Of a DNA stretch of 64,000 bases, positions 651 to 64,000 are shown piece after piece. How positions within the stretch are numbered: the first letter of the stretch is position 1; each line of letters starts with the position of its first letter. Below the pieces are notes generated by a model. That model was given only the letters and a program-made list of their open reading frames with translations. It searched no databases and was not told the origin of the DNA. The position numbers and the translations under genes were made by a program. This stretch comes from Cetorhinus maximus (taxonomy: Eukaryota): contig NC_135887.1 of the NCBI RefSeq assembly GCF_964194155.1, positions 87,048,001-87,112,000 on the forward strand. The letters run 5' to 3'.

Positions 651-1194
651 ATCACAGAAACTAAGAACAGGAGTAGGCCATTCGGCCCTTCGAGCCTGCT
701 CCGCCATTCAATATGATCATGGCTGATCCTCTATCTCAATGTTATATTCCTGCTTTCTCTCCATACCCATGATGTCTCTAATATCCAAAAATTTATCAAT
801 TTCTTTTTTGAATATACTCAGTAACCTGGCCCCTACAGCCTTCTGTGGCAGAGAATTCCACAGGTTGACCACCCTCTGAGTGAAGAAATGTTTACCTCAT
901 CTCAGTCGTGCCCCGTATCTTGAGACTGTGGCCCCTGGTTCTAGACTCCCCAACCAGGAGAAACATCCTCCCTACATCCAATCTGTCTAGCCCTGTTAGA
1001 ATTTTAGACGTTTCAATCAGATCTCCTCTCATTCTTCTAAACTCTAGTGAATACAGGCTCAGTCGAACCAATCTCTCCTCATACGACAGTCCTGCCATTC
1101 CTGGTATCAGCCTAATGAACCTTCGTTGCACTCCCTCTATGGCAGGTATATCCTTTCTTAGGCACGGAGACCAAAACTGCACACAATACTCCAG

Positions 1195-1323
1195 GGCTGG
1201 GATTTTCCAGCCCCGTCACAGGCTGGATCTGCCACAGGCAAGGCAGCGCCTCAGACAGAAGTCCATTGACTTATGGCGGGACTGGAAGATCGCGGCGGCG
1301 GGCGGCTGCGGAAAATCCCACTG
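1195..1323. mobile_element. Small MITE with GGCTGGGATTTTCC-type terminal inverted repeats, inserted into the CR1
   Basis: It interrupts the CR1 sequence cacaatactccag|gtatggtctc. TIRs are ggctgggattttcc...ggaaaatcccactg, with 3-bp flanks cag/tag. Confidence 0.7.
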
Positions 1324-1733
1324 TAGGTATGGTCTCACCAAGCCTCTGTATAACTGCAGTCAGACATCCCTACTTCTGAACTTAAATCCTCTTGCAATGA
1401 AGGCCAACATATCATTTGCCTTCCTAATTGCTTGCTGCTCCTGCCCATTTACTTTCATTCACTGGTGTATAAGGACACCCAGATCCCTTTGTACATCCAC
1501 ATTTCCCAATATATCACCATTTAAATAATACTCTGCCTTTCTGCTTTTCACTCCAAAGCATATAACTTCATATTCATACACATTATACTGCACCTGTCAT
1601 GTGTTTGCCCACACACACAACTTGTCTAAATCGCCACAAAGCCTCCTTGCATCCTCCCCACAACTCTCGACCCCGCCCAGTTTTGTCATCAGCAAACTTG
1701 GAAATAATTGCATTTGGTTTCCTCATCCAAGTC

Positions 1734-1736
<3 letters not shown>

Positions 1737-1766
<30 letters not shown>
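1737..1766. repeat. (TA)n microsatellite inside the CR1 RT region
   Basis: About 15 TA units visible directly. Confidence 0.95.
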
Positions 1767-1770
<4 letters not shown>

Positions 1771-4700
1771 ATAGCTGGGGCCCAAGCACTGATCCCTGCA
1801 GTACACCACTAGTCACTGCCTGCCACCTGGAAAAAGACCCATTTATTCCCACCCTCTGTTTCTGGTCTGTCAACCAATTCGCAATCCACTCCAGTATGTT
1901 ACCCCCAATCCCATGTGCTTTAATTTTGCCCACTAGCCTCTTACGTGGGACCTTATCAAAAGCCTTCTTGAAATCCAAATACGCCACATCCACTGGTTCT
2001 CCCTTATCTATCCTACTAGTTACATCCTCAACAAACTCCAGTAGATTAGTTAAGCATGATTTCCTTTTCATAAACCCATGCTGATTTTGTCTAATCCCGT
2101 TAATGCTTTCCAACTGTTCTGTTACCATGTCTTTGTAATGGACTCTAGCATTTTCCGCACTACTGATGTTAGGCTGACTGGTCTGTAATTCTGTTTTTTC
2201 TCTCCCTTTTTTAAATTGTGGGGTTACATTTGCCACCCTTAATCTGTAGGAACTGCTCCAGAGTCTAGAGAATTTTGGAAGATGAGCACCAATGCATCCA
2301 GTATTTCCAGGACACTTCCTTTAGTACTCTGGGATATAGATTATCAGGCCCTTGGGATTTTTCAACCTTTAACCCCATTAATTTCTCTAGCACCGTTTTT
2401 TTTTACTAATACTGATTTTCTTCAATTCCTCCCTCTCACTGGACCCTTGGTTCCCTAACATTTCTGGGAAATTTTGTCCTCTTGTAAAGATAGAACCAAA
2501 ATATGTGTTCGATTCTTCTGCCATTTCTTTGTTCCCCGTTATGATTTCCTCTGTTTCTGACTGTAAGGGACCTATGTTTGTCTTCGCTAATCTTTTCTCT
2601 TCACATTTATAGAAGCTTTTACAGTCAGTTTTTATGTTTTGTGCAAGTTTACTCTCATACTGCATTTTCCCCCTCTCGGTCAATCTTTTTGTCCACTTTT
2701 GCTTAACTCTAAACTGCTCCCAATCCTCAGGCTTGCTGCTTTTTCTGGCAATTTTAAATATCTCCTCTTTGGATCTAATACTATCCCTAATTTCTTTTGT
2801 AAGCCATGGTTGAGCCATCTTTCCTGTTTTATTCCTGCGCCAGACAGGAATGAATAATTGTTGTAATTCATGCATACGTTCCTTAAATATTAGCCATTGC
2901 TTAGTCAACCCTTTTAGTAAGGTTCCCCAACTCGCACCTCATACCCTTGTAGTTCCCTTAATTTAGATTCGGGACCCTAGTTTCGGATTCAACTTCTTCA
3001 CCCTAATGAACAATTCTACCATTTTATGGTCGCCCTTCTCTAAGGGACCCCGCACAACAAGATTGTTAATTAATTTTTTTCTCATTGCACAATACCCAGT
3101 ATAGGATAGCCTGCCCTCTAGTTGGTTCCTCAACATATTGGTCTAAAAAACCATCACATACACACTCCAGGAAATCATCCTCCACAGTATCATTGCTAGT
3201 TTGGTTTGTCCAATCTATATGTTGATTAAAGTTACCCATGTTTACAGTTGTACCCTTTATTGCATGCGTCTCTAATTTCCTGCTTAATGCCTTCCCTTAC
3301 ATCTCCATTACTGTTTGGGGGCCTATAGACAACCCTCACCAATGTTTTCTGCCCCTTGGTGTTTATCTCCACCCAAATAGATTCCACATCGTGATTTTAC
3401 GAGCCACTATCCTTCCTCACTATTGCATTGATTTCCTCTTTTACTGACAATGCTACCCCACCTCCTTTCCCTATTTGTCTGTCCTTCCTAAATATTGAAT
3501 ACCCCTTGATGTTCAGTTCCCATCCTTAGTCACCCTGCAGCCATGTCTCCGTAATTGCAACTATATCATAACCGTTTATATCTATTTGCGCTGTTAATTC
3601 ATCTACCTTTATTGTGAGTGCTCCGTGCATCAAGATACAATACCTTTAGACTTGTCTTTTTAACCTTGTTAGTCATCTTAGCTTTATTTTGCACTATGAC
3701 CCAATTAGTTTTTTTGCTCTTGTTTTTTCTGCCTTCCACTTTTGCTTTTTACTTTTCTGTCTTTTGTTTTTATCCTTGTTCCCCCTTCCTCTGTTTCCCT
3801 GCTCAGGTTCGCATTCCCCTGCCCTTGTAGTTTAAACCCTACCCGACCGCACTAGCAACCACCACCCAAGGACATTGGTTCCGGTCCTGCCCAGATGCAA
3901 CCCAGCCCCAATGTCCCAGGAATCTGAATCCCTCTCCTCTACACCATTTCTTCAGCCACGTATTCATCTGATATATCCTGTTATTTCTACTCTCGCTAGC
4001 ACGTGGCACTGGTAGTAATCATGAGATTACTACCTTTTGAGGTCCTACTTTTTAATTTATGTCCTAACTCCCTATATTCAGCTTGTAGGACCTCGTCCCT
4101 TTTTTTTTTATGTATGTCGTTGGTACCAATATGTACCATGGCCACTGGCTGTTCACCCTCCACCTTCAGAATGCCCTGCAGCCTCTCCGAGACATCCTTG
4201 ACCCTGGCATCAGGGAGGCAGCATACCATCCTGGAGTGTCTCTTGTGGCTGCAGAAATATCTGTCTGTTCCCCTTACTATTGAATCCCCTATCACTATAT
4301 CCCTGCCACTCCTCTTCCTCCCCTCTTGTGCAGCAGAGCTACCTGTGGTGCAATGGACTTAGGATCTTTCTGCTTTCCCCTGAGAAATCGTCTCTCCCAG
4401 CAGTATCCAAAACGGTATATCTGTTAGAGAGCGGGATGGCACAGGGGACCCCTGTACTACCTGCCTTCCTCTACTCTGCCTGGTGGTCACCCATCCCCTT
4501 TCTGCCTGCTCAGTCTTTACCTGCGGTGTGACCATCTCACTGAACATGCTGTCCACGATAATCTCAGCATCGTGGATATTCCACAGTGAATCGACCCGTA
4601 GCTCCAACTCCAAAATGTGGTTAGCCGGCAGCTGCAGCTAGACACACTTCCTGCACACATGGTTGCCAGGGACGCTGGAAGTGTCCATAACTTCCCACAT

Positions 4701-5509: not shown

Positions 5510-5886
5510 GGGAAGATGGTGAAATAGTGGTGATGTCATTGGACTAATAATCCAGAGGCCCAGACAAATGCTCTGGAGACATGGGTTGAAATCCCACCGT
5601 GGCAGCTGGTGGAATTTAAATTCAATTAATAAATCTGGAATAAAGCCAGTCCCAGTAATGGTGACCATGAAACCATTGTTGTTTGTCATAAAAACGCATC
5701 TTGTTCACTAATGCCCATTAGGGAAGGAAATCTGCTGTCTGTACTTGGTCTTGGCTACATGTGACTCCAGGCCCACAGCAATGTGGTTGATTCTTAACTG
5801 CTGTCTGAAATGGCCTAGCAAGCCACTCAGTTGAAGGGCAATTGGGGATGGGCAACTATCCCATGAAAGAATAAAGAAAAAAAAAA
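5510..5886 (+). mobile_element. tRNA-derived SINE with a family-B LINE 3' tail
   Basis: Degenerate A box (tgaaatagtgg) and B box (ggttgaaatcc). The body is shared with 38390 and 63328. It ends in aagggcaattggggatgggcaa..cccatgaaaga and an A-rich run. Confidence 0.8.
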
Positions 5887-14824: not shown

Positions 14825-15429
14825 CAAATATGAGGGCAGAAAGCCACAAGCCTAAGGAGAGGTAGTGGCCTGGCAGAGTTAAGAGTAGGGGCATGGGCTG
14901 CTGGCCCAGGAAAAGGAAAAGAGGTAGGATGAGGCTGGGAAGGAGTTGGTGTAGGTGAGAGGGTTGCAGGCCCAAAGATAAAAATATTAACATTTTAAAA
15001 ATTTAGCAGAGACAATAGAGAGGAGTTGAGAAGTGGTCAGTTTAGTGGGGAAGGCTGCAAAAGGCAATTGTGCTTTCAAAGTTTAAAAAATAAAATTTTG
15101 CTAATTGCAGTGTAACCTCAAATAGATATAAGGGAAACAATGCAAGAGTAATGGTGTCACCTATGATGGGAAGACTGAAAGGTAAGTATGCATTGTTTGG
15201 CTTGTTAGGAATAGGTATGAAGAAAAGTGATGCAGCCAACACTAAAATCATTACACAGGAAGTAAGTATGATACACACATACACAAGTCAAAACCAATAC
15301 TGAAAAGTTTCATCTTAATTTTGTCAAAGAATGTGTTGATGGTATACCCTAGAACAGTAGGCTGTAGAAGCTGTGGTTATAATAACAGAGATTGAAAATT
15401 AATAGATGTAAAATGCGGATTAATGGATT

Positions 15430-16750
15430 AAAAGACGTGGTAATGGAACACTTGGAAAGCATTAACAGGATTAGACAAAGTCAGCATGGGTTTATGAAAG
15501 GGAAAACATGCTTGACTTGGAGTTTTTTGAGGATGTAACTAGTAGAATAGATAAGGGAGAACCAGTGGATGTGGCATATTTGGATTTCAAGAAGGCTTTT
15601 GATAAGGTCCCACATAAGAGGCTAGTGGGCAAAATTTAAAGCACATGGAATCAGGGGTAATATACTGGCATGAATTGTGAATTGGTTGACAGACCAGAAA
15701 CAGAGGGTGGGAATAAATGGTTCTTTTTCTGGGTGGCAGGCAGTGACTCATGGTGTACCACGGCGATCGGTGCTTGGGCCCCAGCTAGTCACGATATATA
15801 TAAAATGACTTGGATGAGGAAACCAAATGCAATATTTCCAAGTTTGCTGATGACACAAAGCTGGGCGAGGTTGTGAGGAGAATGCAAGGAGGCTTCGGGG
15901 CGATTTAGACAAATTGTGTGTGGGCAAACACATGGCAGATGCATTATAACGTTGATAAATGTGAAGTTATACTCAGTGTGAAAAACACAAAGGCAGAGTA
16001 TTATTTAAATGGTGTTATATTGGGAAATGTGGATATATAAAGGGATCTGGGTGTCCTTGTACACCAGTCAATGAAAGTAAACAGGCAGGTGCAGCAAGCA
16101 ATTAGAAAAGCAAATGATATGTTGGCCTTCATTGCAAGAGGGTTTGAGCTCAGAAGTAGGGATGTCTTACTGCAGTTATACAAGGCCTTGGTGAGATCAC
16201 ACCTGGAGTATTGTGTGCAGTTTTGGTCTCCCTACCTAAGAAAGGATATACTTGCAATAGAGGGAGTGTAGCGAAGGGTCGCTAGGCTGATACTGAGGAT
16301 GTCAGGACTGTTGTATGAGGAGAGATTGGTTCGACTGGGCCTGCATTCACTAGAGTTTAGAAGAATGAGAGGGGATCTGATTGAAACGTATAAAATTCTA
16401 ATGGGGCTAGACAGACCAGGTGAAGGGAGGATGTTTTCGCTGGTTGAGGAGTCTAGAACCAGGGGCCACAGTCTCATGATGTGGGGCAGGCCATTTAGGT
16501 CTGAGATGAGGTAAAAATTCTTCACTCAGGGTGGTCAACCTGCGGAATTCTCTACCACAGAAGGCTGTGGAGGCTGGGTCACTGAGTATATTCAAGAAAG
16601 AAATTGATAAATTTTTGGATATTAGGGGCATCAAGGGGTATGGAGAGAAAGAGGGAATATGGTGTTGAGATAGAGGATCAGCCATGATCATATGGAAGGG
16701 CAGAGCAGGCTTGAATGGCCTACCCCTGCTCCTAGTTTTTTTGTTTCCAT
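15430..16750 (+). mobile_element. 5'-truncated CR1 LINE, same family as 655-5250
   Basis: Contains SQHGFMKGK, YLDFKKAFDKVPH, KFADDTK and LYKALVRSHLEYCVQFWSP..RRMRGDLIETYK, followed by a CR1 3' UTR. Confidence 0.9.
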
Positions 16751-18300: not shown

Positions 18301-19017
18301 GATGTCGTTGAGATTGTAAAGGGAATGAAATAGATAGAGGAGAAGCTAAAATACTTCCAATCCAGAGTTATTTTTTATTTCTGAAATAAAGTGGATTTCA
18401 ATTTTCTTGTGGAGTGTGTGCTGCCTCTCGAAGTTACTGTTTCAGAAGGCAAGGTATTGAAGGGCAGGATACAGATTCATGTATGAGAACCCCAAAACCT
18501 CTTCTGTACGTTCCTAATATAAACATTGCAATTGGAGCGAAGTTACAAGCAGAGATGAACTCTCTCCTACTGTGTAAAAAAGGTAAAGTCAGCGTAAATT
18601 GCCGAAGATGTTTGTAGTGTGTCACTGAAGGGAGTCTGGGAATAATTTGCCTGAGCACTGACATGGATGAGGAAAATATTTGAAAAAGCTCAAGAAAAAT
18701 GCAAAAGAGTTCAGCAAATTTTATACTATATTGACCTGAATTGCTGAAAAAAACTAAGCCGTGCAATTAAAGGAATCTGCACAACCAAACTTTTTTAAAA
18801 ATTCATTCATGGGGTGTGGGCGTTGCTGGCTAGGCCAGCATCTATTGCCCATCCCTAATTGCCCTTGAGAAGGTGGTGTTGAACTGCCTTTTTGAACTGC
18901 TACAGTCTATGTGGTGCAGGTACACCCACTGTGCTGTTAGGGAGGGAGTTCCAGGATTTTGACCCACTTAGGCTGTGTCTGGAGAGAACATTTTGAGCTG
19001 AACAATATTAGGGTTAA

Positions 19018-20360
19018 AAACAAAAAGCTAAAAGCTACTGCGGATGCTGGAAATCCAAAACAAAAACAGAATTACCTGGAAAAACTCAGCAAGTCTGGCA
19101 GCATCGGCGGAGAAGAAATCAGTTAACGTTTCGAGCCTTCATGGCCCTTCGGCAGAACTGCAGCATAGTTTCAACAAGGGAGAAATATAAATTGGTTTAA
19201 GGTGGGTGGGGGGGGGGGAAGAGAATGTGTCTCTTCCCCCCCCCCCACCCACCTTAAACCAATTTATATTTCTCCCTTGTTGAAACTATGCTGCAGTTCT
19301 GCCGAAGGGCCATGAAGGCTCGAAACGTTAACTGATTTCTTCTCCGCCGATGCTGCCAGACTTGCTGAGTTTTTCCAGGTAATTCTGTTTTTGTTTTTAA
19401 TATTAGGGTTAAGTCTTCTTCGGTCTGTCTGCAAGCATTACCCAGACCTCCCTGTCGCTTGCCATCTTCCCCCCCCCCCCACCCACCTTAAACCAATTTA
19501 TATTTCTCCCTTGTTGAAACTATGCTGCAGTTCTGCCGAAGGGCCATGAAGGCTCGAAACGTTAACTGATTTCTTCTCCGCCGATGCTGCCAGACTTGCT
19601 GAGTTTTTCCAGGTAATTCTGTTTTTGTTTTTAATATTAGGGTTAAGTCTTCTTCGGTCTGTCTGCAAGCATTACCCAGACCTCCCTGTCGCTTGCCATT
19701 TCAACACTCCACCCTGCTCTCATGCCCACATGTCCATCCTTGGCTTGCTGCATTGTTCCAGTGAAGCTCAACACAAACTGGAGGAACAGCACCTCATCTT
19801 CCGACTAGGCACTTTACAGCCTTCCGGACTGAATATTGAGTTGAACAATTTTAGATCATGAACTCTCTCCTCCATCCCCACCCCCTTTCCGATTTTCCAA
19901 TAATTTATATAGATTTTTCTTTTCCCACCTATTTCCATTATTTTTAAATGTATTTCCATCCATTGTTTTATCTCTACCTTTTAGTCTTTTTCGATTCCTT
20001 CACCCCACCCCACCCCCACTAGGGCTATCTGTACCTTGCTCGTCCTGCTTACTACTCTTGATTAGCACGTTCCTTTAGGTAATATCAACATCTCTTTGTC
20101 CTTTTGTCTGTGACATCTTTTGGTTATCTCTACCTATCACTGGCCCTCTATCCAGCTGTTCTTGTCCCACCCCCCCTTAAACCAGCTTATATTTCACCCC
20201 TTTTCTATTTTTCCTTAGTTCTGTTGAAGAGTCATGCGGACTCGAAACGTTAACTGTGCACCTCTCCACAGATGCTGCCAGACCTGCTGAGTTTTTCCAG
20301 GTATTTTTGTTTTTGTTTTTGTTTTGGATTTCCAGCATCCGCAGTTTTTTGCTTTTATCT
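19018..20360. mobile_element. Composite Penelope-like insertion: GIY-YIG C-terminus, terminal repeats, perfect hairpin and tandem duplication
   Basis: PVACHFN..MSILGL..KLEEQHLIFRLGTLQPSGLNIE (19650-19861) is a Penelope-like endonuclease end. Inverted arms are 19057-19224 and 19230-19397. A direct repeat spans ~19232-19464 and 19465-19698. Confidence 0.85.
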
Positions 20361-20572: not shown

Positions 20573-20899
20573 GTATCCTTTGGGTGGCACAGTACGTTTT
20601 ATACCAATTTCGGGAGCTGACATCTTGTAGTCCAGCTCATTTCAGCTCTCTCAAAGGCAGGAATTTTAATACAAAATTTATTCCCAAATGTACAAAGGGT
20701 CGTTAACATTTGGGGTTGGTGGGGCTGATTGAGGAGTCTACTTGTGAGTGAGTGAAGGAAGAGTTCTTTTTCAGAGAGAAGACATTCTGTCTTCTAGTCT
20801 TCCACTTAGTGTTTTTTTTATTATTTCACCCATTTTTAAGTAGTACAGAAACATTTTCTGTCAGTTATTGCTCTTTTCTTTCTAACTCTTGCATTTTTT

Positions 20900-21320
20900 T
20901 ATTTGTTCCTGGGATGTGAGTATCTCTGGCATGGTTAGCATCCCTAATTGCCCTTGAGTAGGAGATGATGAGCCACCATCTTTAATCACCACAGTTCATC
21001 TGGTGTAGATACATTCACAGTGCTAGGACGGAGGGAGTTCTAGGATTTTGACCCAGTGGTAGTGAAGAAACAGTGACATAGTTCGAGTCAGAGTGATGTG
21101 TAGCTTGGAGGGAACTTGCAGGTGTGGCTGTTCCCATATGCCTGCTGCCCTTGTTCTTCTAGGTGGTAGAGATTTTAGGTATGGAAGGTGTTGTTGAAGA
21201 AGCTTTGGCAAGTTGCTGCAGTGCATCTTGTAGATGGTATGTACTGCTGCCACTGTGAGCCGGTAGTGGAGGGGGTTAATGTTTAAGGTGGTAGATGGGG
21301 TATTGATCAAGTGGGATACA
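20900..21320 (-). mobile_element. Family-B LINE 3' fragment
   Basis: LNINPLHYRLTVAAVHTIYKMHCSNLPKLLQQHLP; homologous to 48320-48860 and 55170-55680. Confidence 0.75.
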
Positions 21321-21897: not shown

Positions 21898-23320
21898 AAT
21901 GAATTATTTTTATTTATGAGCAACCTCAGTTTGATTTTGATCCTCCTCAAAATCTACCTTTTTACACATTCCTTTTGTTATCTAACTATTCTGCTGCCTG
22001 TCATTTGTTTTAAGTTTGGGAATGGCTTTGGGACATTTACTTAAAAGAGTTCTATCATTGCAAGTTATTGATCCATTATGGTAAGTGGCAGCAGACTGTT
22101 TCACCGTGGAGAGTCAAATTCAATCCTGTCCTTAACTGATACACTTTCCAGCAGGGGCCATTGGAACTGGGAATTATGGCTGATTTTTGCCTCCCAAAAC
22201 AAGAAAGCTAAGATCAATTGTATCAGCACTGCTGCCAACTGAATTGATAACATTTAACTAAGCACAGACCTGAGATTGAAACTGGGCCTACCTCCTGCAC
22301 ATAATACCCACACTAGAAGATGTATTAAACCATCAAGTCACCTCTCAAAATTATTTTTTAAAATCTAGTAGGCAGTATTAAGCAGAAATTCTTTTTAATA
22401 CTCCTGAGTAGGTTGATTGAATAATCTCCTCCCTGGGAATAGCATTTTCTATTTTAAATCCCATTTTCAGGAATGAGGAATAGAATTCTCAGTGATCTTT
22501 TGGACTAAACTTGAAAGGCTTTAGTATGGGATTTTATCTCTGTAACTGAATTACAAAGACAGAAAAAGTAAAATATTTTTAAGTCACTGGTGGTTTTCGC
22601 CTGTTTCTTGCACAGAACAAAGGCTGCTGTTGTGGTACTTACAGCAGTTTACAATTTTTAGCAAATTAGGTTGCCATATTTTACCAATCTTCTTAATTCA
22701 TTTTTGCTTTATGTGCAACATTAGCAAGGCCATCATTTATTGCCCATCTCTAGTTGCCATTGAGATGATGGTGGTGGTGGTCGGCCACCTTCTTGAACCA
22801 CTGCCATCCATGTGGTGAAGGTACTTCTACGATGCTATTAGGTAGGAGAGCTCCAGAATTTTGACCCAGAAATCTTGAAAATCTGGCAAGTTCAGAACAT
22901 GGACTGACAGTGGAACAAAGACAGATTTAGGATGGAATCATGGCTTTATCTGACTCCTGATTTTTGCCTTTTGATGATGAAAAGCCAGCAGAAGTCCAAA
23001 GACATAAATAACAACTTTGCATTGGGTGATTTCTTTTGCTATGTGCTATGAAAACATAAATCATTTTCTGCACTCACATTTATGATTTCAATGCATTTAA
23101 TGTGCAGCAGAATTTTTTTCCCCTTGTTGTAAAACACAGAAATTAGTTGGAAAAAATGGACTTCAGATTTAAAAAATAGACTTTTGTTCTCCAGTTTATC
23201 GCTTCATTGTTTCCAGATGCCAGGTCAGAAATCCTGGGTGAGAACTCAGGACACTTGATCCCCTAAAATTGATATTTATAGTTATCATTGCAGCAATATT
23301 CCTTAACCAGATTGCAACAG

Positions 23321-31382: not shown

Positions 31383-33278
31383 CTGTAAGTCCCTGTTTAA
31401 GTTGTCCCACTTTAAGTTTGCTTTAAAATCGTGCTGTTTTTCGAGCCAGTCGTCTTGATTTACGTCATAAATTGCGATTTATTGTCGTAGCGAGTCATTT
31501 TGCACACCTTTTTGCACTGTTGCACATAATCATGGCACATCATCTTGTGATGCTGGGTTCCATGACCCGATCGACACCGTTCTAAAGTGATTGTGATCGG
31601 AGGTGTTTGTTTGTACTTGAGGGAACTGCGATTTAAACAAAACTCTGAAGCAAAGTTCTCAAAGAAGAATATCTAAACCAACATTTTTTTTTGCAAGGAA
31701 GTAGTTGAAGGCTGGCCTGCTAATTTCTCTGCAGAAAAGGCCCATTTCTTGACTCTGCAAGGTGATTTTTGGAGTCCCAAATATGTCTGTTGTGGAGCTT
31801 TACATTGAGTGAGGTAGCGAGACCATTTTTAAGTCTGCTAGAGAGGCATTTGCTACTGTACACATCAATTGCTCTCCTTGTCTCAGGATTTGTTTGGGTG
31901 AAGAATACAGGTGACACAATCACATTGCAAGATCCTGACTGCAATTTTCTGATTAATTTTGGAGTCCCAAATTTGGCCCTTGGCCTTTGTTCAACTCTGC
32001 AGCAGGTGAGGCAGAAAGGCTGTTCCGGGCTGAATATTGAATTCAACAACTTTAGATCTTAAACTCCCTCCCCCATCCCCACCCCCATTTCCGTTTCTTC
32101 CCCCTCCCTTTTGTTTTTTCCAATAATTTATATAGATTTTTCTTTTCCCACCTATTTCCATTATTTTTAAATCTATAACTATAATACCCTGTCAGTCTTT
32201 CCACCCCACCCCCACTAGAGCTATACTTTGAGTGTCCTGCCATCCATTCTTAATTAGCACATTCTCTTAGATAATATCACCACCTTTAACACCTCCCTGT
32301 TCCTTTGTCTGTAACATCTTTTGATTATCTGCTCCTATCACTGCTTGCTTGTCCCTACAACCCCGCCCCCCCCACCCCCAACTTCTCTCCCCCACCCCCA
32401 CCCCGACCTTAAACCAGCTTATATTTCACCCCTTTCCTAACTTCACTCAGTTCTGCTGAAGGGTCATGAGGACTCGAAACGTCAACTCTTTTCTTCTCCG
32501 CCGATGCTGCCAGACCTGCTGAGTTTTTCCAGGTAATTCTGTTTTTGTTCGGGAGAAGATTCATTTGGGAAGGCACTGAACACAGACTTTGTCAGGAACA
32601 TGTGGAGTTGAAGTCAAGGCGGCGGTGAGAATGCAAAAACCTCCAAACAACTCATCTCACTGACCATCCAAGAAACAGCTGCCCTACATGTGGTAGAGTC
32701 TGTGGATCCCATATTGGACTTGAAAATCGTCTCAAAACCCATCGAACCAGAGTGGAAGCAAGTCATCCCCAAACCCAAGGGATTGACTAAGAAGAAAGAG
32801 AGAATGCTGAGTGTTAACTAATTTGAATTTATATTGTATTTCTTTAATATTTAGTGATTTATTTTATTTTGGAAGTTATTTCAGCTAGGAATGAACAGTA
32901 CTGCCTATGTACTGTGCAGTATTTCAACTTGTGCATTGGGCAAGAATTGTCTGAAGGAACCTAACTCTGGTTTTAACATTCTTATGATTCCTATGGAACC
33001 TGTGATTCACTTGAAGTTGGTTAACTTAAAGTTGCAATCTTTTTTTTAATTCATTATGGAATGTGGGCGTCACTGGCTAGGCGAGTATTTATTGCCACTG
33101 AGAAGGTGGTGGTGAGCTGCCGCATTGAACTGCTGCAGTCCACGTGGTGGAGGGAGGGAGTTCCAGGAATTTGACCCAGTAACAGTGAAGGAATGACAGT
33201 ATATTTCCAAATCAGGATGGTGAATGGCTTGGAGTGGAACTTCCAAGAGCGACTATAACTTTAAGTGAGGAGTTACTG
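31383..33278. mobile_element. Old pogo/Tigger-like DNA transposon remnant with nested insertions
   Basis: Imperfect TIRs (ta)ctgtaagtccctgtttaagtt ... aactttaagtgaggagttactg. Interrupted by a Penelope piece and a family-B tail (33050-33245). Confidence 0.4.
32020..32550 (+). mobile_element. Penelope-like 3' fragment
   Basis: SGLNIEFNNFRS-stop followed by the same C-rich UTR and terminal repeat as 19820-20360. Confidence 0.8.
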
Positions 33279-37844: not shown

Positions 37845-39175
37845 CAGGAGTAGGCCATTCAACCCCTTGAGCCTGTTCTGCCATTCAGCTCAATCATGGC
37901 TAATCCTGTAATTTATCTAGAATCATTTTGGTTGTTTAATTCTTTACTAACAGAAAACCATCAATCTCAGTTTTAACGTTTTCAATTGACCCAGCATCCA
38001 CAACTTTTTGAAGGAGAGTGTTTCCGATTTCTATTACCCTTTTCTGAATATACTGGTTCTTATTTTGCAGATTGTGTCCTCCTTGCTTTGGATTCCCCCA
38101 CAGAAGAAAAACCTTCTCCATATCTCCCCTATTGAATTTCTTAATTATTCTAAAGATCTTGATTAAATTAAGGCTGAACCTTTTCGATGCAAGGGAAGAT
38201 AAGCCAACTTTAGCAATATGTCCTCCAGAACTTAAACTCTTTGAGCCCCAGTACATACAACCATACGAATTAGGAGCAGGAATAGGCCGCTCGGCCCTTT
38301 GAGCCTGCTCTGCCATTCAATAGGATCACGGCTGATCTGATTGTAACCTCCCGCCTATACCCGGCAACCTTTCACCCCTTTGCTTATGGGAAGGCAGTGG
38401 CATAGCAGTATTGTCACTGGACTGGTAATCCAGAGAGCCAGGGTAATGCTCTGGGGATCCAGGTTCGAATCCCAGTGCAGCAGATGGTAGAATTTGAATT
38501 CAATAAAAATCTGGAATTAAAAGTCTAATGAGGACCATGACACCATTACCGAATGTCATAAAAACCCATTTGGTTTACTAATGTCCTTTAGAGAAGGAAA
38601 TGAGCTGTTACATGTGACTCCAGGCCCACAGCAATGACTCTTACATGAACAAGGGCAATTAGGGATGGGCAATAAATGCTGGCCTAGCTAGCGAAGCCCA
38701 CATCCCGTAAACAAATAGAAAAAAAATCAGGAATCTACCTCTGCCTTAAAGACTCTGCTTCCATTGCCTTTTGAGGAAGAGTTCCAAAGACACACTACCC
38801 TTGAAGAAAAAAAGTTCTCCTCATCTTAAATAGGTGATTCCTTATTTTTAAACAGTGACCCTAGGTTTTCCCATAAGAGGAAATGTCCTCTCCACATCCA
38901 ACCTGTCAAGACCCCTCAGGATCTTAAAGGTTTCAATCAAGTTGCCTTTTACTCTTCTAAACTCCAGTGGATACAAGCCTACCCTGTCCAACCTTTCCTC
39001 ATAAGACAACCCACTCATTCCTGGTATTCGTCTAGTAAACCTCTGAACTGCTTCTAATTCATTTATACCCTTCTTTAAATATAGAGACCAACACTGTTCT
39101 CAGGACTCCAGATATGGTCTCACCAGCGTCTTCCTATTTTTATATTCAATTACCCTCACAATAAACAATAACATT
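37845..39175 (-). mobile_element. Stacked CR1 3' fragments with a nested SINE
   Basis: Repeated CR1 termini (aggagtaggccattc.. at 37848 and 38272) and antisense RT C-terminal sequence. Confidence 0.75.
38390..38727 (+). mobile_element. tRNA-derived SINE with a family-B tail
   Basis: B box ggttcgaatcc at 38462. Tail aagggcaattagggatgggcaataaatgctggcc..cccacatcccg, then an A-rich end. Confidence 0.85.
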
Positions 39176-48000: not shown

Positions 48001-48319
48001 AGGTGAAAAACCAGAATGTCATCCATTGTACCACTGGTCCTGATTATAGTCCATTGTTAATGTATTTTGATGGTCACAACCTGTGTGTCTCAGCAGTCTC
48101 AAATGCAACAAATTAAATGTTAACATCATGCCTCTTTCTGGCCACTGCCCCTTGCACTGATCCATCTCCCTCTCCTCTGGAAGTCTGCAGATATCTGACA
48201 AGTTTAATACATTACTGACAGTTAAACAGATTAAATAGTTTGTGAACATTGCTGGAAATCGTACAGTAAAGTCTGAAAATGTTGCAAATGCACAGTAGGT
48301 CAGTCAGACTCTGCAAAGC

Positions 48320-48860
48320 CTCCCCATCATCTACAAGGCTCAAGTCAGGAGTGTGATGGAATACTCTCCGCTTGCCTGGATGAGTGCCGCTTTAACAACA
48401 ACTTAAGAAGCTGGACACCATTCAGGACAAAACACCCCACTTGATTGGCACCCCATTCACCACCTTAAACATTCACTCCTTCCGTCACCAAGAGGTAGCA
48501 GTGTGTACCATCTACAAGATGCACTGCACCAACTCACCAAGGATCCTTTGACAGCACCTTCCAAATCTACAACGTCTACCGCCCTGAAGGACAAGGGCAG
48601 GAGATGCATGAGAAAACAAGCTGCAAGTTCCCCTCCACGCCACACACCACTCTGGCTTAGAACTAAATTGCTGTTCCTTTACTGCCATTAGGTTAAAATC
48701 CTGGAATTCCCTCCCTAATAGCACTGCAGGTGAACCTACAACACATGCCCTGCAGCAGTTAGAAGACAACTCACCGCCATCTTCTCAAGGGCAGTTAGGG
48801 ATGGGCAATAAATGCTGGCCTAGCCAGCGATGCCCACATCCCATGAAAGATTAAAAAACA
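48320..48860 (+). mobile_element. Family-B LINE 3' end
   Basis: IYKAQVRSVMEYSPLAWMSA..KKLDTIQDK..VCTIYKMHC, then the tail caagggcagttagggatgggcaataaatgctggcc..cccacatcccatgaa. Confidence 0.85.
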
Positions 48861-49464
48861 AGTTAGCACCTGTAAAGAGAAAATACAGGTCACTGCTTGA
48901 GGATGCACCCTTCATCAGAACTGAAGACTAAAAGGCATTTTAGTAAGGCTTGAAAACAGATGAGAAGAGAGATTCAACAGTTACACCAATCATACAGAGT
49001 CAGTTAACGAATTTGCAAGTTGCCAAATAGTAAATTGTTAGATGGTGTAAAAAATCCCAGATGAGATAGTTGTTGGAGACTGAAGACTGAGAGGTCAGAG
49101 TGGAAATTGAAATGGCAAGCCAAAGGAGGCCAGACCTGCAGATAGAATGAAAATTTGAGCCATATTGAAATTTAACTGAGTGACTTCAAAATATATTTTT
49201 CTGGCTGTCCAAAAGGCTCACGAGGATTAAAATGCCACCTGATATACTACCAAAGAACCAAAACGATCTGTGTCTGTGCTCATTTATAGCATTTGCCTCT
49301 GAGTCTTGGTTGGGGACAGCAGGATAAAAATTTTAATAAGGTAGGGGAGTCATGACTTTATTTGCAAGAAAATTCTGTGAAGCTGAAAGAGCAGCAGTAA
49401 CCACTGGATTAACAAACTGACCTCCTGAAGAGGGACCTTGAGTTTTAAAGTTCTTAATTTTTTT

Positions 49465-49765
49465 TATTAGTTCATGGGATGTGGGTGTTGCTGCTTTTAT
49501 TGCCATCCCTAATTGTCCTGTTCAGAGGCAATGTGGGTCTGGAGTCACACGTACGCCAGCAGATCTCCTTCCCTAGAGGACATTAGTGAACCAGGTGGGT
49601 CTTTACGACAATCGTTTTGTGGTTTTCAGATTTCTAAATCCAGATTTATTGAATTCAAATTTCACCATCTGCCATGGTAGGATTTGAACCCGGGTCCCCA
49701 GAGAATTACCCTGGGTCTTCTGGAATACTAGATCAGTTACAATACCACTTTGCCACCACTGGTAA
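49465..49765 (-). mobile_element. tRNA-derived SINE (family of 5510 and 38390), antisense
   Basis: Reverse-complement head (ggatttgaacccgg; ccactttgccacc) and tail (ttcatgggatgtggg). Confidence 0.8.
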
Positions 49766-51324
49766 GCTTCTTTGTAAAATGCCATAAAGAAAGGGAAAAC
49801 CTCAGGTTTCCTGGTATATGTGCAATAAACACAATCTACAATCTGAGTACTTTTTCTACTCCTTTGCGGGGGGGGGGGGGGTGGTGGGGGGGGGGGGTGG
49901 TGGTGGTAGTGAGGTTTGCCAGTTAGGCTCAAATGTGCGGCCAGGTTGAGCCACCTAATGACAAGTCAGTGTGTAATGCTCAGATTTTTTTTTGGTTCTG
50001 GTTCCATTAATGTCATTAGCTATATTTTCTGTGTTACTTCTAATTCATCACCATAAATTGCTTCTATAGCCACAAGCTGTCTGTTCTTTTCTGCTTCTTC
50101 ACCTCCCACCCAAAAAGCCAGCTGTTATTGGTGATGGTGAATTTTTACTCTGACACATTTAACTGAGAATCAGACCCGTGTTTCTTTGTTCAGTAAACCT
50201 TCTGAAACAAACGCAGCTGTCGGCTATAGCTTCCTGGTGGCACACTTACCTCTGAGTCAGAAGGTTATGGATTCAAGCTTCATTCCAGACTTGAGCACTT
50301 AAATCTAGGTTGTTTCTGATGCCCAAACCAATATTTATCTCTCAAACAATATCACTAAAATGGATGAACATTGCAGTTAATTGGAACTTGTATGTGTAGC
50401 TTAGTATCCAACCTGTAGCCCCAAAATCCTCATAATTAGCCCCATGAAGCCCAGGAAACTCAACTGCTTTCACTCCAGTTTTTTATGTGCAGATTTGTCC
50501 TGTTTGAATTTTTTGAGTCTGAAGATTTGGAATGGGCTATTCTTTGTTGTGATCTTTCTGGTCAATAAATCCTAAATAAGGACACCAAGACCTGTTAGTT
50601 TCAATAATTTTAGCTGTATGTAAATTAATGAGAACATGAATTTAAACCTTATATGTGGGCCCTGAGGATTGAGGGTTCATGGCTTGTACCCATGCTGCCT
50701 GTTTAGACAAATGCCTCAATTTGTAGAACTATCATCTCAGAGTATCTGTCAAAACCATTGTCAGCCACTGAGTTGCACTGTCAGCCAATGAATTGGAGGC
50801 AGGATGGGAGTTACGCTAGAACCACAGCAAACAATGCATTTTACAACAAGAAAACTTTATTTCTTCAGTGAGGAAATTATTTGAACAGTGCATTAGAGCA
50901 GTATTAACTCAGCAGAGTCTATTCTATAAAAGTCTCTATGAAATACAACAAACAAAACCCCTCACTGGAATTATCACACCACCACCCAATAAAAGTTAGA
51001 TTATTTCTCCAGCAAAGCACAGTGACTGGAGATTGTTACAAAATACAAAATTATGTAAAATCAATCCAATCACCACAACAAGCTCCGGCATGAATAACAA
51101 GGGAATTACTTAATCATCTTCACCCAGAATGGGAACAATGACATGACTAAAAGGCAGTTGTTCCACTCCCATTCTTTCTTGTATGTTCTCCCTCTCTCCT
51201 CCTGTGTCTCTTTGCCTTGCCCATGTTGCACTCTGTCATCAGTCCCCTGTTGTGCTCTGCCCTTGGCCCCCTCTGCCAACGGTTCCAAGTCCCTGCCCCT
51301 CTCCTGGACCAACCACCCAGAAAT

Positions 51325-52655
51325 GATGTAGGCACCCGATATTATAATTACACAGCCAGCTCAGTCGACCCTGCAAACTCCTTACTAACATTTACGGACA
51401 TGCTAAATTTGGGAAAGCTGCCCCATAGATTCACCGAGCAATAGCCTGGCATAGTCGCACTCATCAAATCGTACCTTACAGCTAAGGTCCAAACTCCGCT
51501 ATCACCATTCCTAGGTATGTCCCACCTGAGGTGGCGGCACTGTGGCATACAGTTGGGAGTGAGTGGCCCTAGGAGCCCTCAGCATTGATCCAGATCTCAT
51601 GAAGTCTCATGGCGTGAGGTCAAACATAGACAAGGAAACCTCCTGCTGATTTCCACCTACAGACCTCCCTCAGCTGAAGAGTCAATGCTTCTCCATGTTG
51701 AACATCACTTGGAAGAAGCACTGAGGGCAACGAGGGCACAGAATATACCCTTGGTGGGATACTTCAATATCCATCACCAAGAGAGACTCGGTAGCACCAC
51801 TCCTGATTGAGTCCTGAAGGACATACCTGCCAGACTGGGCTTGCGGCAGGTGTTGCGAGAACAACACGGGGGAAAAACAAACTTGACCTTACTCTCACCA
51901 GTCTACTTGTTAAAGATCCATCTGCCCATCACAGTGTTAGTAGGGTGACCATTGCACAGTCCTTTGAAGAACAAATCTTGCCTTCACACCAAGGATACCC
52001 TCCGTTGTGTTCTTTCTACCACTGTGCTAAATGGAATAAATTCAGAACAGATCTAGCAGCTCCAAACAGGGCATTCTTGAGGCATTGTGGACCATCAGCA
52101 GCAACAGAACAGAGTAATTTTCTTTCTTTTTATGGTTATTCATTTCATATGCTATTATTTAAGTGAATGAGCTCTGTACCTAAAATGAATTTTATGGACA
52201 AAATGTGAAATTGAATTGTTGTACTCCACATTTGTAACCTCATGCTCTGACATATCCCTCACTCAGTTAAATACCATTAAGCCAGGGAATCAACCCCTAG
52301 TTCAAAGAGGAGTGTAGGACAGCATGCCAGGAGCAGCACCAAGCATACGTAAAAATGAGGCGCCAACCTAGTGAAGCTACAGAAGAACTACATGCATGCT
52401 AAACAGCAGAAGCAGCATGCTCTCAGACAGAGCTCAGTGATCCCATAACCAATGGACCAGATCAAAGCTCTGCAGCCCTGTCACTTCCAGTCAAGAATGG
52501 TGGTGGTGAAAGAAGAGGCTTCATGAATGTCCCTATCCTCAATGATGGTGGAGCCTAGCAGTGAGTGCAAAAGACAAGACTGGGGCATTTGCAACCATCT
52601 TCAACCAGAAATGGTGAGTGGATGATCTATCTTGGCCTCCTCCTGAGGTCCAATG
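51325..52655 (+). mobile_element. Family-B LINE endonuclease and linker region, decayed
   Basis: Homologous to 63610-64000. APE-like motifs LLISTYRPPS, VGYFNIHH and KNKLDLTLT. Confidence 0.75.
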
Positions 52656-53662: not shown

Positions 53663-53872
53663 GAGACTGATTATACTACAAACGATCAAGTTGACCTTTA
53701 TGATGATGTAATAGCAGCTGCTGATGGTAATAACCAAGAAGATCAAAGTTTTGATGAGATATTACCACGGACTCCTGGTGATCAACAGAAAACTGACAAT
53801 AGCGCCAGGCCGACCATAGTCTACACATACGGAGGCAAGCGGCAAGCTGTGTATGTAGGAAACCTGACATGG
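53663..53872 (+). CDS. CPSF7: CPSF7 coding exon 2 (210 nt)
   Basis: Acceptor ttctctttcag|; encodes ETDYTTNDQVDLYDDVIAAADGNNQEDQSFDEILPRTPGDQQKTDNSARPTIVYTYGGKRQAVYVGNLTW; donor |gtgagt. Confidence 0.93.
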
Positions 53873-54686
53873 GTGAGTGAATCTATACCTGGTTAGCTTG
53901 ACTCCGATGTACAAAACCTTATGTCCAATGATGGCAACTGTATTTGGACACACCGAAAAGTTTTCAAGAGGCCTGGTGGGGACAACCTGTCATGTTATTT
54001 TTCTGCCTTTTTCCCTCTATTCCTGAGCTTATTGGCTAAACAATTCAACTTCGATGTGTTTGGCCTGCTTTGGGAAACGGACTAAACGTAGCTTTTGTCA
54101 GTTCTCCTTATTGTTGGAGAGGAATGAATCTTGCCAGTATTGCCTCTAAGTTGTGTCTGTTTTACACTAATTACAAGTGAAGTTGTTTGCTCATCCTCAC
54201 ATTACAGAAAGGCTTCGCTTACTGAGAATTATGGGTAGATTTTGCTTTTCGTGGAATTAATTCTGCCAAATGCTTATAAACAAACAAAAATAATGGATGG
54301 GAAAAGACCAAATGTTCCACTGAGGCTGTCATGTATCATCATTGTGCAACTTAACACCATGGTCCCTGTTGCTACCACCCATCAACAGCATTGTAATCTA
54401 CTCGGACAGGAAAGAAACAGAGGAAACGACCCTGGAGCTAAAAACTCATGAGAAATTCCTGTCCAACCCCGAAGGTAATCAAACAAGTTCCAAGAAATCA
54501 CAGCATGAACTAGCAGGTCATTTCAAAGATCAATGACTCTGCAAAAAGAAAGCCTCCTGATATCCAACTTATATCAATATCCACATGTCCTCCTTAACCT
54601 ATCTAATTCAAATAGCAGATCCACATGGACCAGATCTAATCCTTTCACCATTTTAAAAGATCTTAAACAATCTCCTCAAATATATT

Positions 54687-55169: not shown

Positions 55170-55680
55170 AATTTATTCTTTCATGGAATGTGGGCATCAC
55201 TAGCTAGGCCAGCGTCTATTGCCCATTCCTAGTTACTTTTGAGAAGATGGTGGTGAGCCACCTTCTTGAACCGCTACTGTCCATGCGGTGTAGATACACC
55301 CACTGTGCTGTTAGGAAAGGAGTTCCAGGATTTTAACCCAGTGACAGTGAAGGAACAGTGATATATTTCTAAGCCAGGATGGTTTGTGGCATGGAGGGGA
55401 TATTGTGGGTGGTGGTGTTCCTAAACATCTGTTGCTCTTGTCCTTTGAGGTTTTAGAAGTTGTGGGTTTGGAAGGAGCTGTCGAAGGAGCCTTGGTGAGT
55501 TTCTGCAGTGCACCTTGTGGATGGTACACACTGCTACCACTATGCGTCGGTGGTGGAGGGAGTGAATGTTTAAGGTGATGGATGGTGTGCTACTCATTCG
55601 GGCTGCTTTTCCTGGATGGTGTTGAGCTTCTTGAGTGTTGTTGGAGCTGCAGTCATCCAGGCTAGTGCACTCATCCAGGC
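55170..55680 (-). mobile_element. Family-B LINE 3' end, antisense
   Basis: LNIHSLHHRRIVVAVCTIHKVHCRNSPRLLRQLLP plus the shared tail. Confidence 0.8.
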
Positions 55681-56669: not shown

Positions 56670-58890
56670 TGAGATGAGTGGACCTGCTACCCATTGAGTT
56701 TGCAACCATCTTCAACCAGAAGTGTTGAGTGGATGATCCACCTCGGCCTCCTCCTGAGGTTTCCAACATTAGAGCTACCAGTCTTCAGCCAATTTGATTC
56801 ACTCCATGTGATATCAAGAAATGGCTGTGCGCACTGGATACAGCAATGGCTATGGGCTCTGACAGCACTCCAGATGTAGTGTTGAAGACTTGTGCTTCAG
56901 AACTAGCTGTGCCCATAACCAAGCTGTGCCAATACAGCTACAACACTGGCAGTACCTGACAAAATGGAAAATTGCCCAGGTCTGTTTTGTCTATAAAAAG
57001 TAGACAAAAGGAGACCAATTAACACTATCAGTATTCTCTCAATCATCAGTAAAGTGATGGAAGGTGTCGTCGATAGTGCTATCAAGTGGAACTTAATTAT
57101 CAATAACCTATGCTTAGTTTGGGTTCCACCAGGATCACTTGGTTTCAGACCTTGGATCCAAACATGGACAAAAGATCCTAATTCCAGAGCTGAGGTGAAA
57201 TTTACTGTCCTTGACATCTAGGCAGAGTTTGACTGCATGTGGCATCAGGGAGCCCTAGCAAAATTAAAATCATTGGGAATCAGGGAAAAAGACCACTAGT
57301 TGAAAGTAATAAGAAATAAGTTTGCTGATGATAGAAAATTGGATGGGAAAGTAAGTGGCGAAAAGGGCACAAAAAGGCTATAAAGGGTTGGGTGAGTGGG
57401 CAAGAACAAGGCAGATGGAATTCAATGTGGTGAAGTATGAAGTTATCCACATTGGTGGACAAATAAAAAAGCAGAGTTTTTTTGAATGGTGAGAGATTGG
57501 GAAATGTTTGCATTCAGACGGACCTGAGTGTCATTGTACATGAGCCTCTCAGTTAACATGCAGGTACAGCAAGCAATTAGGAAAGCAAATGATATGTTAG
57601 CAAAGGCATTGGAGTATAAGAATAAAAACCTGGAGTACTCTCTTTGCAGTTTTGATTTCCTTACCTAAGGAAGGACATACTTGCCCAAGAAGGGGTGAAA
57701 CAAAGGTTCATTAGACTGCTTCCTGAGATGAGGAGAGGTTGAGTAAACTAGGCCTATGTTTCCGGGAGTTTAGAAGATTGAGAGGCGATCTAATTGAAAC
57801 AAATAAAACTCTTAAGGGGCTCGACAAGGTAGATGCTGAGAAAATATTTCCTCAGGCTGGGGAATCTCGAACAAAGGTGTCACAGTCTCAGAATAAGAGG
57901 TCAGCCGTTTAGGACTGGGATGAGGAGAAATTTCTTCACTCAATGGGTTGTGAATCTTTGGAATTATCTAGCTCCAGAGAGCTGTGAATGCTCAGTCATT
58001 GAGTATATTCAAGACAGGTGGATAGATTTTTGGGTATTAAGTGAGTTTGGCGAAATGGGGATAGCACAGGAAGATGTTGTTGAAGTAGAAGATCAGCCTG
58101 CTCCTATTTCTTATATTCTTGTATCTAGTACAAAAGAAGATGGTTGTAGTTAATGGAGGCCAATCATTCAGCCCCAGGACGTCATTACAAGAGTTCCTCA
58201 GGGCAGTGTCCTAGACCCAGTAATTTTCAGCTGCTTCATCAATGATCTTCCCTCTATCATAAGTTCAGAAGTAGAGATGTTCGGTGATGATTGCACAAAG
58301 TTCAGTTCCATTTGCAGCTCCTCAGCTAATGAAGCAGTCTTTACCTGCATGCAACAAGACCTGGAAAACTCTCAGGCTTGGGCTGACAAATGGCAAGTAA
58401 CATTTGTGCCACACTAGTGCCAGGCAATGACCATCTCCTACAAAAGAGAATGTAATAACCTCCTCTTGATATTCAACAACGTCCACCACCTTGAACATTC
58501 ACTCTCTTCAGCACCAGCACACCTTGGCAGCTGTATGTACCATCTACAAAGAGCACTGCAGTACCTTGCCAAGGTACCTTTGACAGTATTTTCCAAACCC
58601 TTGACCTCTACCATTTAGAAGAACATGGGCAGCAGGTGCACGGGAACACTGCCACCTGCAAGTTCCCCTCCAGGTCACACCCCATCCTGACATGGAACTT
58701 TATCACTGTTCCTTCACTGTTACTAGTCAAAATCCTGGAACTCCCTCCCAAACAGCACTGTGGATGTATCTGCACCACATGGACTGCAATGGTTCAATAA
58801 GGCAGCTGACCATCACCTTCTCAAGGACAATTAGGAATGGGTAATAATTGTGCTCATTGCTAGTGACATTCGTGAATGTATATAAGAAAA
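56670..58890 (+). mobile_element. Family-B LINE RT region and 3' end, split by a CR1 insertion (~57290-58125)
   Basis: ISILSIISKVMEGVV and VLDI..FDCMWH before the insertion; VPQGSVL..FSCFINDLP, MFGDDC and WADKWQVTF after it; shared tail near 58820. Confidence 0.8.
57290..58125 (+). mobile_element. CR1 3' fragment nested in the family-B LINE
   Basis: KFADD.KL, ..RGDLIE.. and HSLRIRGQPFRTGMRRNFFTQWVVNLWN. Confidence 0.8.
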
Positions 58891-59809: not shown

Positions 59810-60570
59810 AGCTGGTATAGGCCATGGAGCCCCTGAGTCTGCTCTGACATTCAGTGAGATCATGACTAAAATTTTACATCTACTCTACTTTCCCACCCTA
59901 TCCCCATATCCCTTGATTCCTTTTGTGCCCACAAATTTGTTGATCTCAGTCCTGAATTTACCCATTGACTTAGCATCCACAGTCTTCTGAGGTAGAGAAT
60001 TCCAAAGATTCACAACGTTTGAGTGAAGAAATGTTCTCTTCATCTTAGATCTAAATGGCCAACCCCTTATCCTGAGTCCATGACCCCTAATCTATACTCT
60101 CCAGGGAAATAGCCTCTCAGCATCTACCCTGTCAAGGCCTGTATATACTTCAACGAGATCAACTCTATTCTCTGGAGTTTAGAAGATTATAGGCCCAATG
60201 TCAATGTCTCTTCATAGGACAGCCTCTTATATCAGGAATCAATCTGGTGAACTTTGTTGTATACCCTTTAAGACAAATATATCCTTCCTTGGGTAGGGAG
60301 ACCAAAACTGTAGAAACACAGTACTGCAGGTGTGATCTCAATCAAGACTTCCTTGCTGTTATACCCAAACCCCTAAAGGTTACATTACATTTCCCTTCCT
60401 AATTCTTGCTGTACCTGCATGTTAACTTCCTGTGATTCATGTACAAGTACCCTCAAATGCTCTGAATACCAACACTTACTAGCCTCTCAGCTTTAAAAAA
60501 TATCCTGCTTTTCCATTCTCTCTACCAAGTGCCTAATTTCACACATTCCCATATTGTACTCCATCTGCAA
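59810..60570 (-). mobile_element. CR1 3' fragment, antisense
   Basis: Homologous to 670-1600 (for example ggtagagaattccaaagattcacaa..gagtgaagaaat and ggagaccaaaactg). Confidence 0.8.
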
Positions 60571-63327: not shown

Positions 63328-64000
63328 GGGAGAGGTGGTGGCGTAGTGGTTTTGTCACTGGACTAGTAATCCAGAGACCAAGGATAATGCTCTGGGGACC
63401 TGGGTTCGAATCCCACCACGGCAGATGGTGGAATTTGAATTCAATTAAAATCTGGAATTAAAAGTCTCATGATGACCATGAAACCATTGTTGATTGTCGT
63501 AAAAACCTGGCCTACATGTGACCCCAGATCCAAAGCAATGTGGTTGACTCTAAAATGCCTTCTGAAATAGCCTAGCAAGGCACTCATTTGTAACTGCTAA
63601 AAAGTCATCGATCTAGGCGCCGGAAACAACAACAGCAAACTCAGCCCTATCGACCTTGCAAAGTCCTCATTAATAACATCTGGCTTTTTTGGGAGAGCTG
63701 TCTCACAGACTAGTAAAACAACAACCTGACATAGGCATACTAACGGAGTCATACCTTACAGATTATGCCCCAGACACCACCATCACCTTCCCTGGGTAAG
63801 TCCTGTCCCACCTGGAGGACAGACCCAGCAGGTGGTATACAGTTGGGAGGGAGTTTCCCTCAACATTGTCTGCGGATCCTATGAAGTCTCATAGCATCAG
63901 GTCAAAAATTGACAAGGAAACCTCCTGCTGATTACCACATACTGCTCCCCTCAGCTGATGAATCAGTACTCCTCTATGTTGAACACCACTTGGAGGCAGC
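63328..64000 (+). mobile_element. tRNA-SINE head joined to the family-B LINE endonuclease (runs off the window)
   Basis: A box TGGCGTAGTGG (63339) and B box GGTTCGAATCC (63403), SINE body to ~63590, then APE-like KVLINNIW..GELSHRLVKQQPDIGILTESYLT. Confidence 0.8.

Follow-up and report, generated by a model that had tools for sequence, protein, structure and literature searches.

In the textbook division, LINEs are coding elements transcribed by Pol II and SINEs are non-coding elements transcribed by Pol III. Some BovB elements carry SINE fragments at their 5′ ends, and Cassandra elements contain 5S promoters. The R2 element has a single ORF, and its uncapped RNA is translated, often from no clear AUG. 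R2 RNA is a Pol I co-transcript that is cut by a ribozyme, and R2 encodes an RLE endonuclease. The LINE of Cetorhinus maximus described here is also a single-ORF element, but its endonuclease is of the APE type.

Closer relatives are known. Zenon elements that lack ORF1 and end in poly(A) have been reported from elasmobranchs, coelacanth and hagfish, and absence of ORF1 is reported as universal for Zenon (Stuart et al., 2026; PMC13343379). An earlier note, made from the present DNA alone, had presented the missing ORF1 as a departure from the norm; it is thus a known trait of these elements. The tRNA-headed DeuSINEs SacSINE1 and LmeSINE1 are like the SINEs of this locus in their tRNA head, body, LINE-shared tail, length of about 400 nt and occurrence in sharks (PMC5499810; PMC3747384). 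They are described there as non-autonomous, with a partner LINE (L2-2_CM or CR1-4_DR-like) that is homologous at the tail only, whereas the headed LINE shares the whole SINE head and body as well. Bipartite non-autonomous LINEs, or SIDEs, such as Bov-A/Bov-tA and the RTE- and Vingi-derived SINEs, are likewise short and made of two LINE ends (PMC5786205). In those elements the tRNA head is described as gained after the deletion. In the shark it sits on the autonomous element, and therefore an interior deletion gives a complete SINE in one step. Persaeus is also a short Zenon derivative, from Lepidoptera, but is described without a Pol III promoter (PMC6740152). Chimeras of small RNAs with LINE-1, such as U6-L1 and tRNA-L1, carry the small RNA 5′ of the LINE as a result of template switching or ligation (PMC13174262). 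By analogy, this is a plausible route for the origin of the shark head, although the reported chimeras are individual insertions and the shark junction has been amplified thousands of times together with a selected ORF. No autonomous LINE with a Pol III head was found in full-text searches of the literature, including the available portions of PMC5786205, PMC6740152, PMC11481361, 10.1101/443036, PMC3747384, PMC13174262, PMC4494074, PMC10468316, PMC3531059 and PMC4824008; Repbase Reports lie outside this scope, and a prior description may exist.

The window analyzed here is a stretch of 64,000 nt (contig NC_135887.1, positions 87,048,001 to 87,112,000). Its positions 63328-64000 belong to a dead copy of a LINE, 3.29 kb long with a single ORF, and form its 5′ end, with these features:

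63328..63423, + strand: tRNA-derived head (ARAGORN, Rfam); the element's 5′ end lies 11 nt upstream of the A box
63339..63349, + strand: A box of a Pol III type-2 internal promoter (by sequence; matches the consensus)
63403..63413, + strand: B box (by sequence; matches the consensus)
63424..63589, + strand: SINE body; this copy lacks 54 nt at 63506/63507
63567..63578, + strand: ATG-GCC-TAG-CAA of the family, with ATA instead of ATG in this copy
63590..63668, + strand: LINE-only linker; in the family majority an in-frame, basic, Arg-rich N-terminal extension without AUG
63669..64000, + strand: beginning of the APE endonuclease, disrupted in this copy

The copy continues beyond the window to G000:C9:87114295, where the RT, tail and poly(A) are found. 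It is decayed by deletions, frameshifts and stops, and has four T4+ runs of its own. The earlier note's account of this 5′ end holds: consensus A and B boxes lead a segment of about 260 nt that is common with three SINEs of the window and runs, without a SINE tail, through a linker into an endonuclease. A tRNA-like fold at 63332-63423 is the sole ARAGORN call in the window, and the Rfam match is a weak one to the tRNA clan only (E 0.028, under the gathering score). The SINE-shared segment spans 63328-63589 and, with 54 nt lost from this copy, is about 262 nt long against 316 nt in the family majority; it is 79-85% identical to the SINE copies at 5510, 38388 and 49759. Its body is presumably the Deu-type body of SacSINE1, and on circumstantial grounds we take the window SINEs themselves to be SacSINE1. 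At the point where the SINE at 5510 enters its tail, the linker begins; it measures 79 nt in this copy and about 118 nt family-wide. INNIW follows at 63669-63683 and then, past a frameshift, GELSHRLVKQQPDIGILTESYL. The TAG of ATG-GCC-TAG-CAA is the final in-frame stop ahead of the long frame in the family majority. Upstream in the window, at 53664-53873 on the + strand, is a CPSF6-like exon that runs from the N-terminus to the start of the RRM (PDB 3q2s, E 1e-14) and ends in a GT donor. The LINE copy at 63328, on the same strand and downstream, probably lies inside an intron.

Other copies of the family are found in the window:

51306..52651, + strand: same LINE, 5′-truncated and interrupted (family positions 357-1659)
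5510..5886 (end approximate), + strand: SINE type A (family positions 1-316 joined to 3217-end)
38388..38725, + strand: SINE whose head (family positions 2-267) and tail (3218-3293) are of the LINE type
49458..49759, - strand: SINE with LINE-type head, further deleted
48307..48858, + strand: 3′ fragment of the same LINE
18791-18966, 20894-21284, 22690-22869, 33040-33245 and 55172-55667, - strand: 3′ fragments of the same LINE
56699-57285 and 58122-58850, + strand: 3′ fragments of the same LINE

The first of these had been reported as a headless copy at 51325 with the same linker-to-endonuclease junction. The head is indeed missing, but the copy starts at 51306, at family position 357, and is therefore 5′-truncated within the linker. 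A second, CR1-like LINE family occupies 658-2400, 15427-16738, 38880-39125, 57387-58108 and 59818-60568 in both orientations; the headed LINE and these pieces have 23-39% protein identity. A recent array of units of about 165 nt lies at 19057-19699; the units alternate in orientation and are 98-99.6% identical, so that long inverted repeats are formed.

The junction of head and LINE is not unique to this locus. A junction search of the shark's own genome gave 7857 candidates, and 36 of the 40 loci scored, the window locus included, span the junction unbroken. Two of these, L013 and L018, share their upstream flanks; they lie about 470 kb apart on G000:C24 and represent a local duplication rather than independent insertions. 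In the genome, a 24-nt pattern from the junction is matched exactly at 2274 sites, and its reversed control at none. An endonuclease-only DNA query was used so that copies were not selected for the head. Among the best 30 of its 3693 candidates, a sample that includes the query copy and underrepresents older variants, 20 begin no more than 19 nt from the head start, seven within the head and three beyond it, so head sequence is present in 27. No other 5′ end and no ORF1 were seen among these 30. In eight truncated copies tested, the upstream sequences are mutually unrelated and give no alternative 5′ UTR. An older subfamily with a different 5′ end could have been missed by a sample of top-scoring copies. 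Non-CpG divergence among copies is 5.9% in the B box and 12% between the two boxes, and copies are 4.5-10% diverged from their majority.

Target site duplications spanning head to tail, which the earlier note had looked to as support, give no consistent signal. Exact repeats of at least 7 nt flank three of 21 copies, against 6% of mismatched pairs, and two of the three lie in simple repeats. An empty-site test supports insertion as a unit instead. In seven of 22 copies, or seven of the nine with repeat matches on both sides, a single older repeat is restored when the two flanks are joined across the whole element; five of these repeats are dispersed, two of the five cases resting on one or two subjects, and two are simple repeats. 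The element thus inserts from head to tail as one unit. Two full-length copies, L182 and L183, lie within C/A-rich simple repeats with repeat-like sequence on each side. In another copy (L179:768-1486), the endonuclease region is interrupted by an inserted piece of the family itself, a 3′ fragment of positions 3068-3293.

The majority of 14 copies is 3293 nt long. It has the head and body at 1-316, a tail of about 70 nt common with the SINEs, and poly(A). A single stop-free frame of 975 codons spans 303-3227, and Pfam matches to the endonuclease and RVT_1 on natural copies lie in one ORF. ORF1 is absent from this majority: 302 nt precede the frame, and the longest stretch open there in that frame is 43 codons. 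The full-length consensus is headed, has one ORF and shows neither an ORF1 nor an alternative 5′ UTR. The structure of the headed LINE family is near certain. An overlapping open frame of 97 codons at family positions 196-486 has a conserved AUG at 349 and overlaps the endonuclease start out of frame. Among non-CpG variants shared by at least five of 26 head-bearing copies, 30 are synonymous, 19 are non-synonymous and none creates a stop. Only 24.6% of singleton variants are synonymous, and the excess among shared variants is significant (p 6e-8). The ORF was under purifying selection in head-bearing source genes, and these genes therefore kept a working protein. The case for autonomy of the headed form is strong, and the autonomous single-ORF LINE suggested by the earlier note is upheld. 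The element departs from canonical vertebrate CR1/L2 LINEs, which have an esterase ORF1 upstream of ORF2. It is SINE-like at its promoter but is not a SINE, since SINEs are short and non-coding and this element is 3.3 kb long with a selected frame of 975 codons.

The headed LINE is the same element as Zenon-1 of CarCar, HypSab, RhiTyp, ScyCan and SquAca (PMC13343379). All seven elasmobranch Zenon consensuses in the supplement of that paper, from five species of sharks and rays, open with this head, body and linker when their first 400 nt are compared by eye, so the junction does recur in related species. The elasmobranch Zenon-1 consensuses are 3244-3314 characters long, against 3293 here, and also have a single ORF and a poly(A) tail. 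Intact ORF2 is listed in that supplement for three of 612 HypSab copies and one of 1419 RhiTyp copies. The assignment to CR1-Zenon is based on this match, by eye, of the first 400 nt and the length. In the three hagfish and coelacanth Zenon consensuses, no such head is seen in the first 400 nt and T runs are present; two of the three are poorly resolved there. A quick RT tree built without named Zenon references groups the LINE with marine invertebrate LINEs, one of them from a brittle star, and apart from the genome's CR1. The nearest proteins to its ORF are 37-42% identical. LINE-like RT sequences also turned up in bacterial genome bins (L231, L232) and are probably animal host contamination. 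In the main text of PMC13343379, the words 'tRNA' and 'promoter' do not occur, and 'SINE' occurs solely in a reference. The element's sequence and its missing ORF1 are thus already known, and the head is in the data of that paper yet undescribed in its main text. What is new relative to it is the depletion of T, the proposed AUG-less start, the probable derivation of SINEs and the selection on the headed ORF.

Two types of SINE in the genome are related to this LINE. Type A (3266 exact junction matches) consists of LINE 1-316 joined to 3217-end and has no sequence of its own; it aligns with LINE 12-316 (91.7%) and 3217-3287 (90%), and by eye its head resembles that of SquAca Zenon. Type B is commoner (5256 exact junction matches). 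It equals LINE 14-293 (97.5%) plus 3218-3291 (96%) and has the LINE's two head indels. Since both types are collinear with the two ends of the LINE, the simplest reading of these alignments is that the SINEs arose by internal deletion of the headed LINE, more than once. Part exchange between SINE and LINE may also have occurred. The earlier note was right that a tRNA-derived 5′ end belongs to the family, but today's SINEs are probably not the source from which this end was captured. The first head was probably contributed by an older tRNA SINE, because holocephalans and coelacanth are reported to have SacSINE1-like elements (PMC5499810).

In vertebrates, Pol III terminates when the non-template strand presents a run of at least four T. 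Internal oligo-T has accordingly been used as a ground for excluding transcription by Pol III (PMC4494074). Over its 3293 nt, the sense strand of the family majority lacks T4 altogether, against 15, 11 and 10 runs of A4+, C4+ and G4+, and an independent majority of 20 other copies likewise has none. The internal terminators that were to be looked for are therefore absent from the family majority, though not from the decayed window copy; the sole T4 site common to copies is a CpG decay of TTTCG. Absence of T4 is by itself modest evidence (P 0.011 by base shuffling, 0.08 by synonymous shuffling and 0.0075 by a codon model). The strength of the argument lies in the TTT counts. TTT occurs six times in the majority, against 76 AAA, 63 CCC and 56 GGG. 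In the ORF there are four TTT against 15.6 expected from synonymous shuffles that hold protein and codon usage fixed, and none of 3000 shuffles is as low. None of the 43 NTT codons is followed by T, and windows with four T of five number two against 22.6 expected. The depletion is limited to T and to one strand. Changes that create TTT make up none of 21 shared variants and 81 of 627 singletons, a contrast that is only suggestive of avoidance of TTT by source genes.

Related elements lack this depletion. All 53 related metagenome ORFs, those with a frame of at least 600 codons among 80 loci fetched, have T4 runs, and their TTT ratios are 0.71-1.22 against 0.26 in the shark LINE; these controls are single contigs set beside a majority, have about 28-37% protein identity (best 14 listed) and leave out the nearest relatives, P0004-P0008. 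A CR1 control from the same genome (majority of 20 copies) has six T4+ runs in 1800 nt and a TTT ratio of 0.9. Neither similarity to the head or tail nor an A/B box pair was found in the 80 metagenome loci, where relaxed ARAGORN calls look like noise. Four invertebrate relatives (P0013, P0014, P0019 and P0020) have an equally low Phe content (1.6-1.8%). The 5′ end of the family is sharp, 11 nt ahead of the A box, which fits a Pol III start. In contigs of four sequencing runs that we presume to be RNA, the head and the endonuclease parts are covered; the junction is unbridged among the pieces listed, and contigs do not preserve start or strand. Self-avoidance by the endonuclease was considered as the cause of the T depletion and rejected, as A4 runs are abundant on the same strand. 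Taken together, these sequence patterns make it likely that the whole coding element is transcribed by Pol III.

Translation is the weakest link of this model. RNA made by Pol III carries no cap and is, in general, a poor template for translation. In two majorities the first in-frame Met is residue 291, beyond the endonuclease. In five of the six nearest relatives with DNA, a Met lies at most 44 codons from the frame start, and the sixth is cut short. The frame ahead of the endonuclease encodes an Arg-rich extension that resembles those of some homologues. We infer internal initiation at a non-AUG codon. Readthrough of ATG-GCC-TAG-CAA as a start is weakened by a second in-frame stop at 318-320 in 11 of 34 copies (eight TAA, two TGA, one TAG); by eye, the RhiTyp and SquAca consensuses also show a shifted spacing between this motif and the endonuclease frame. 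An in-frame AUG start would result from a GAG variant (GAG/GTG in eight of 34 copies), but this variant forms no clade in a weakly resolved tree and is also found in SINEs. Initiation at the conserved out-of-frame AUG at 349 would call for a frameshift, for which no canonical slippery heptamer was seen by eye.

The reading we favor, and judge to be probably right, is that of an autonomous CR1-Zenon LINE, the active ancestors of which were transcribed by Pol III and gave off SINEs through internal deletions. TFIIIC would bind the internal A and B boxes of the head, and Pol III would start about 11 nt upstream of the A box. It would read 3.3 kb because no T4 terminator lies inside, and would stop at the next genomic T-run, as for a SINE. 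On the uncapped RNA, translation would begin internally at a non-AUG codon, at about family positions 321-430. The resulting EN-RT protein would then bind the 3′ stem-loop and poly(A) tail, and the RNA would be integrated by target-primed reverse transcription. As the whole RNA would be copied, every full-length copy would carry the promoter, and loss of the interior would give rise to the genome's SINEs. A bolder version, in which a 3.3-kb Pol III messenger with cap-less and AUG-less translation has been kept across sharks and rays, is the parent of SINEs and uses the SINE body as its initiation element, is held more tentatively, at somewhat short of an even chance.

Three other explanations were weighed. 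The head may be the 5′ end of the family and yet act as a Pol II promoter or 5′ UTR, or the element may be carried by host Pol II transcripts, with T purged for another reason such as RNA stability or avoidance of pairing with poly(A). Capped RNA would ease translation, the window copy lies on the same strand as the upstream CPSF6-like exon, and Pol II promoters have been reported within certain tRNA-derived SINEs. This account is nevertheless unlikely, given that the purge hits T only, on one strand only, and is seen neither in relatives, the A-tailed L053 and L077 included, nor in the genome's CR1. The sharp 5′ end 11 nt ahead of the A box also speaks against it, and a capped RNA would meet ten AUGs before position 300, the in-frame ones being followed by stops. 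Somewhat less likely still is dual use, in which Pol III makes the template RNA and the protein is translated from Pol II RNA made at this locus or a different one. It would explain the T purge without translation of uncapped RNA, and would suit an element that has no AUG start of its own. Yet supply in trans would let the ORF decay, and the purifying selection seen on this ORF in the copied lineages implies that whatever sequence was copied made its own protein.

The third explanation, that head and LINE met by chance or form a non-autonomous SINE-LINE chimera that was amplified in trans, is very improbable, with nothing in its favor except the decay of the window copy and the missing target site duplications. 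Against it stand the lack of any other 5′ end among the 30 copies sampled and the purifying selection, and chance adjacency of head and endonuclease is refuted by the 2274 exact junction matches and the recurrence in five species. Transcription of an autonomous LINE by Pol III thus remains the preferred reading.

If it is correct, a natural, selected, kilobase-long coding transcript of Pol III would break the split between LINEs and SINEs, and the element would be a vertebrate model for cap-independent, AUG-less translation. It would also provide a route by which a SINE may be born in one step, through loss of the interior of a headed LINE. Finally, it suggests a possible job for the conserved SINE body, the function of which is called unknown in PMC4824008.
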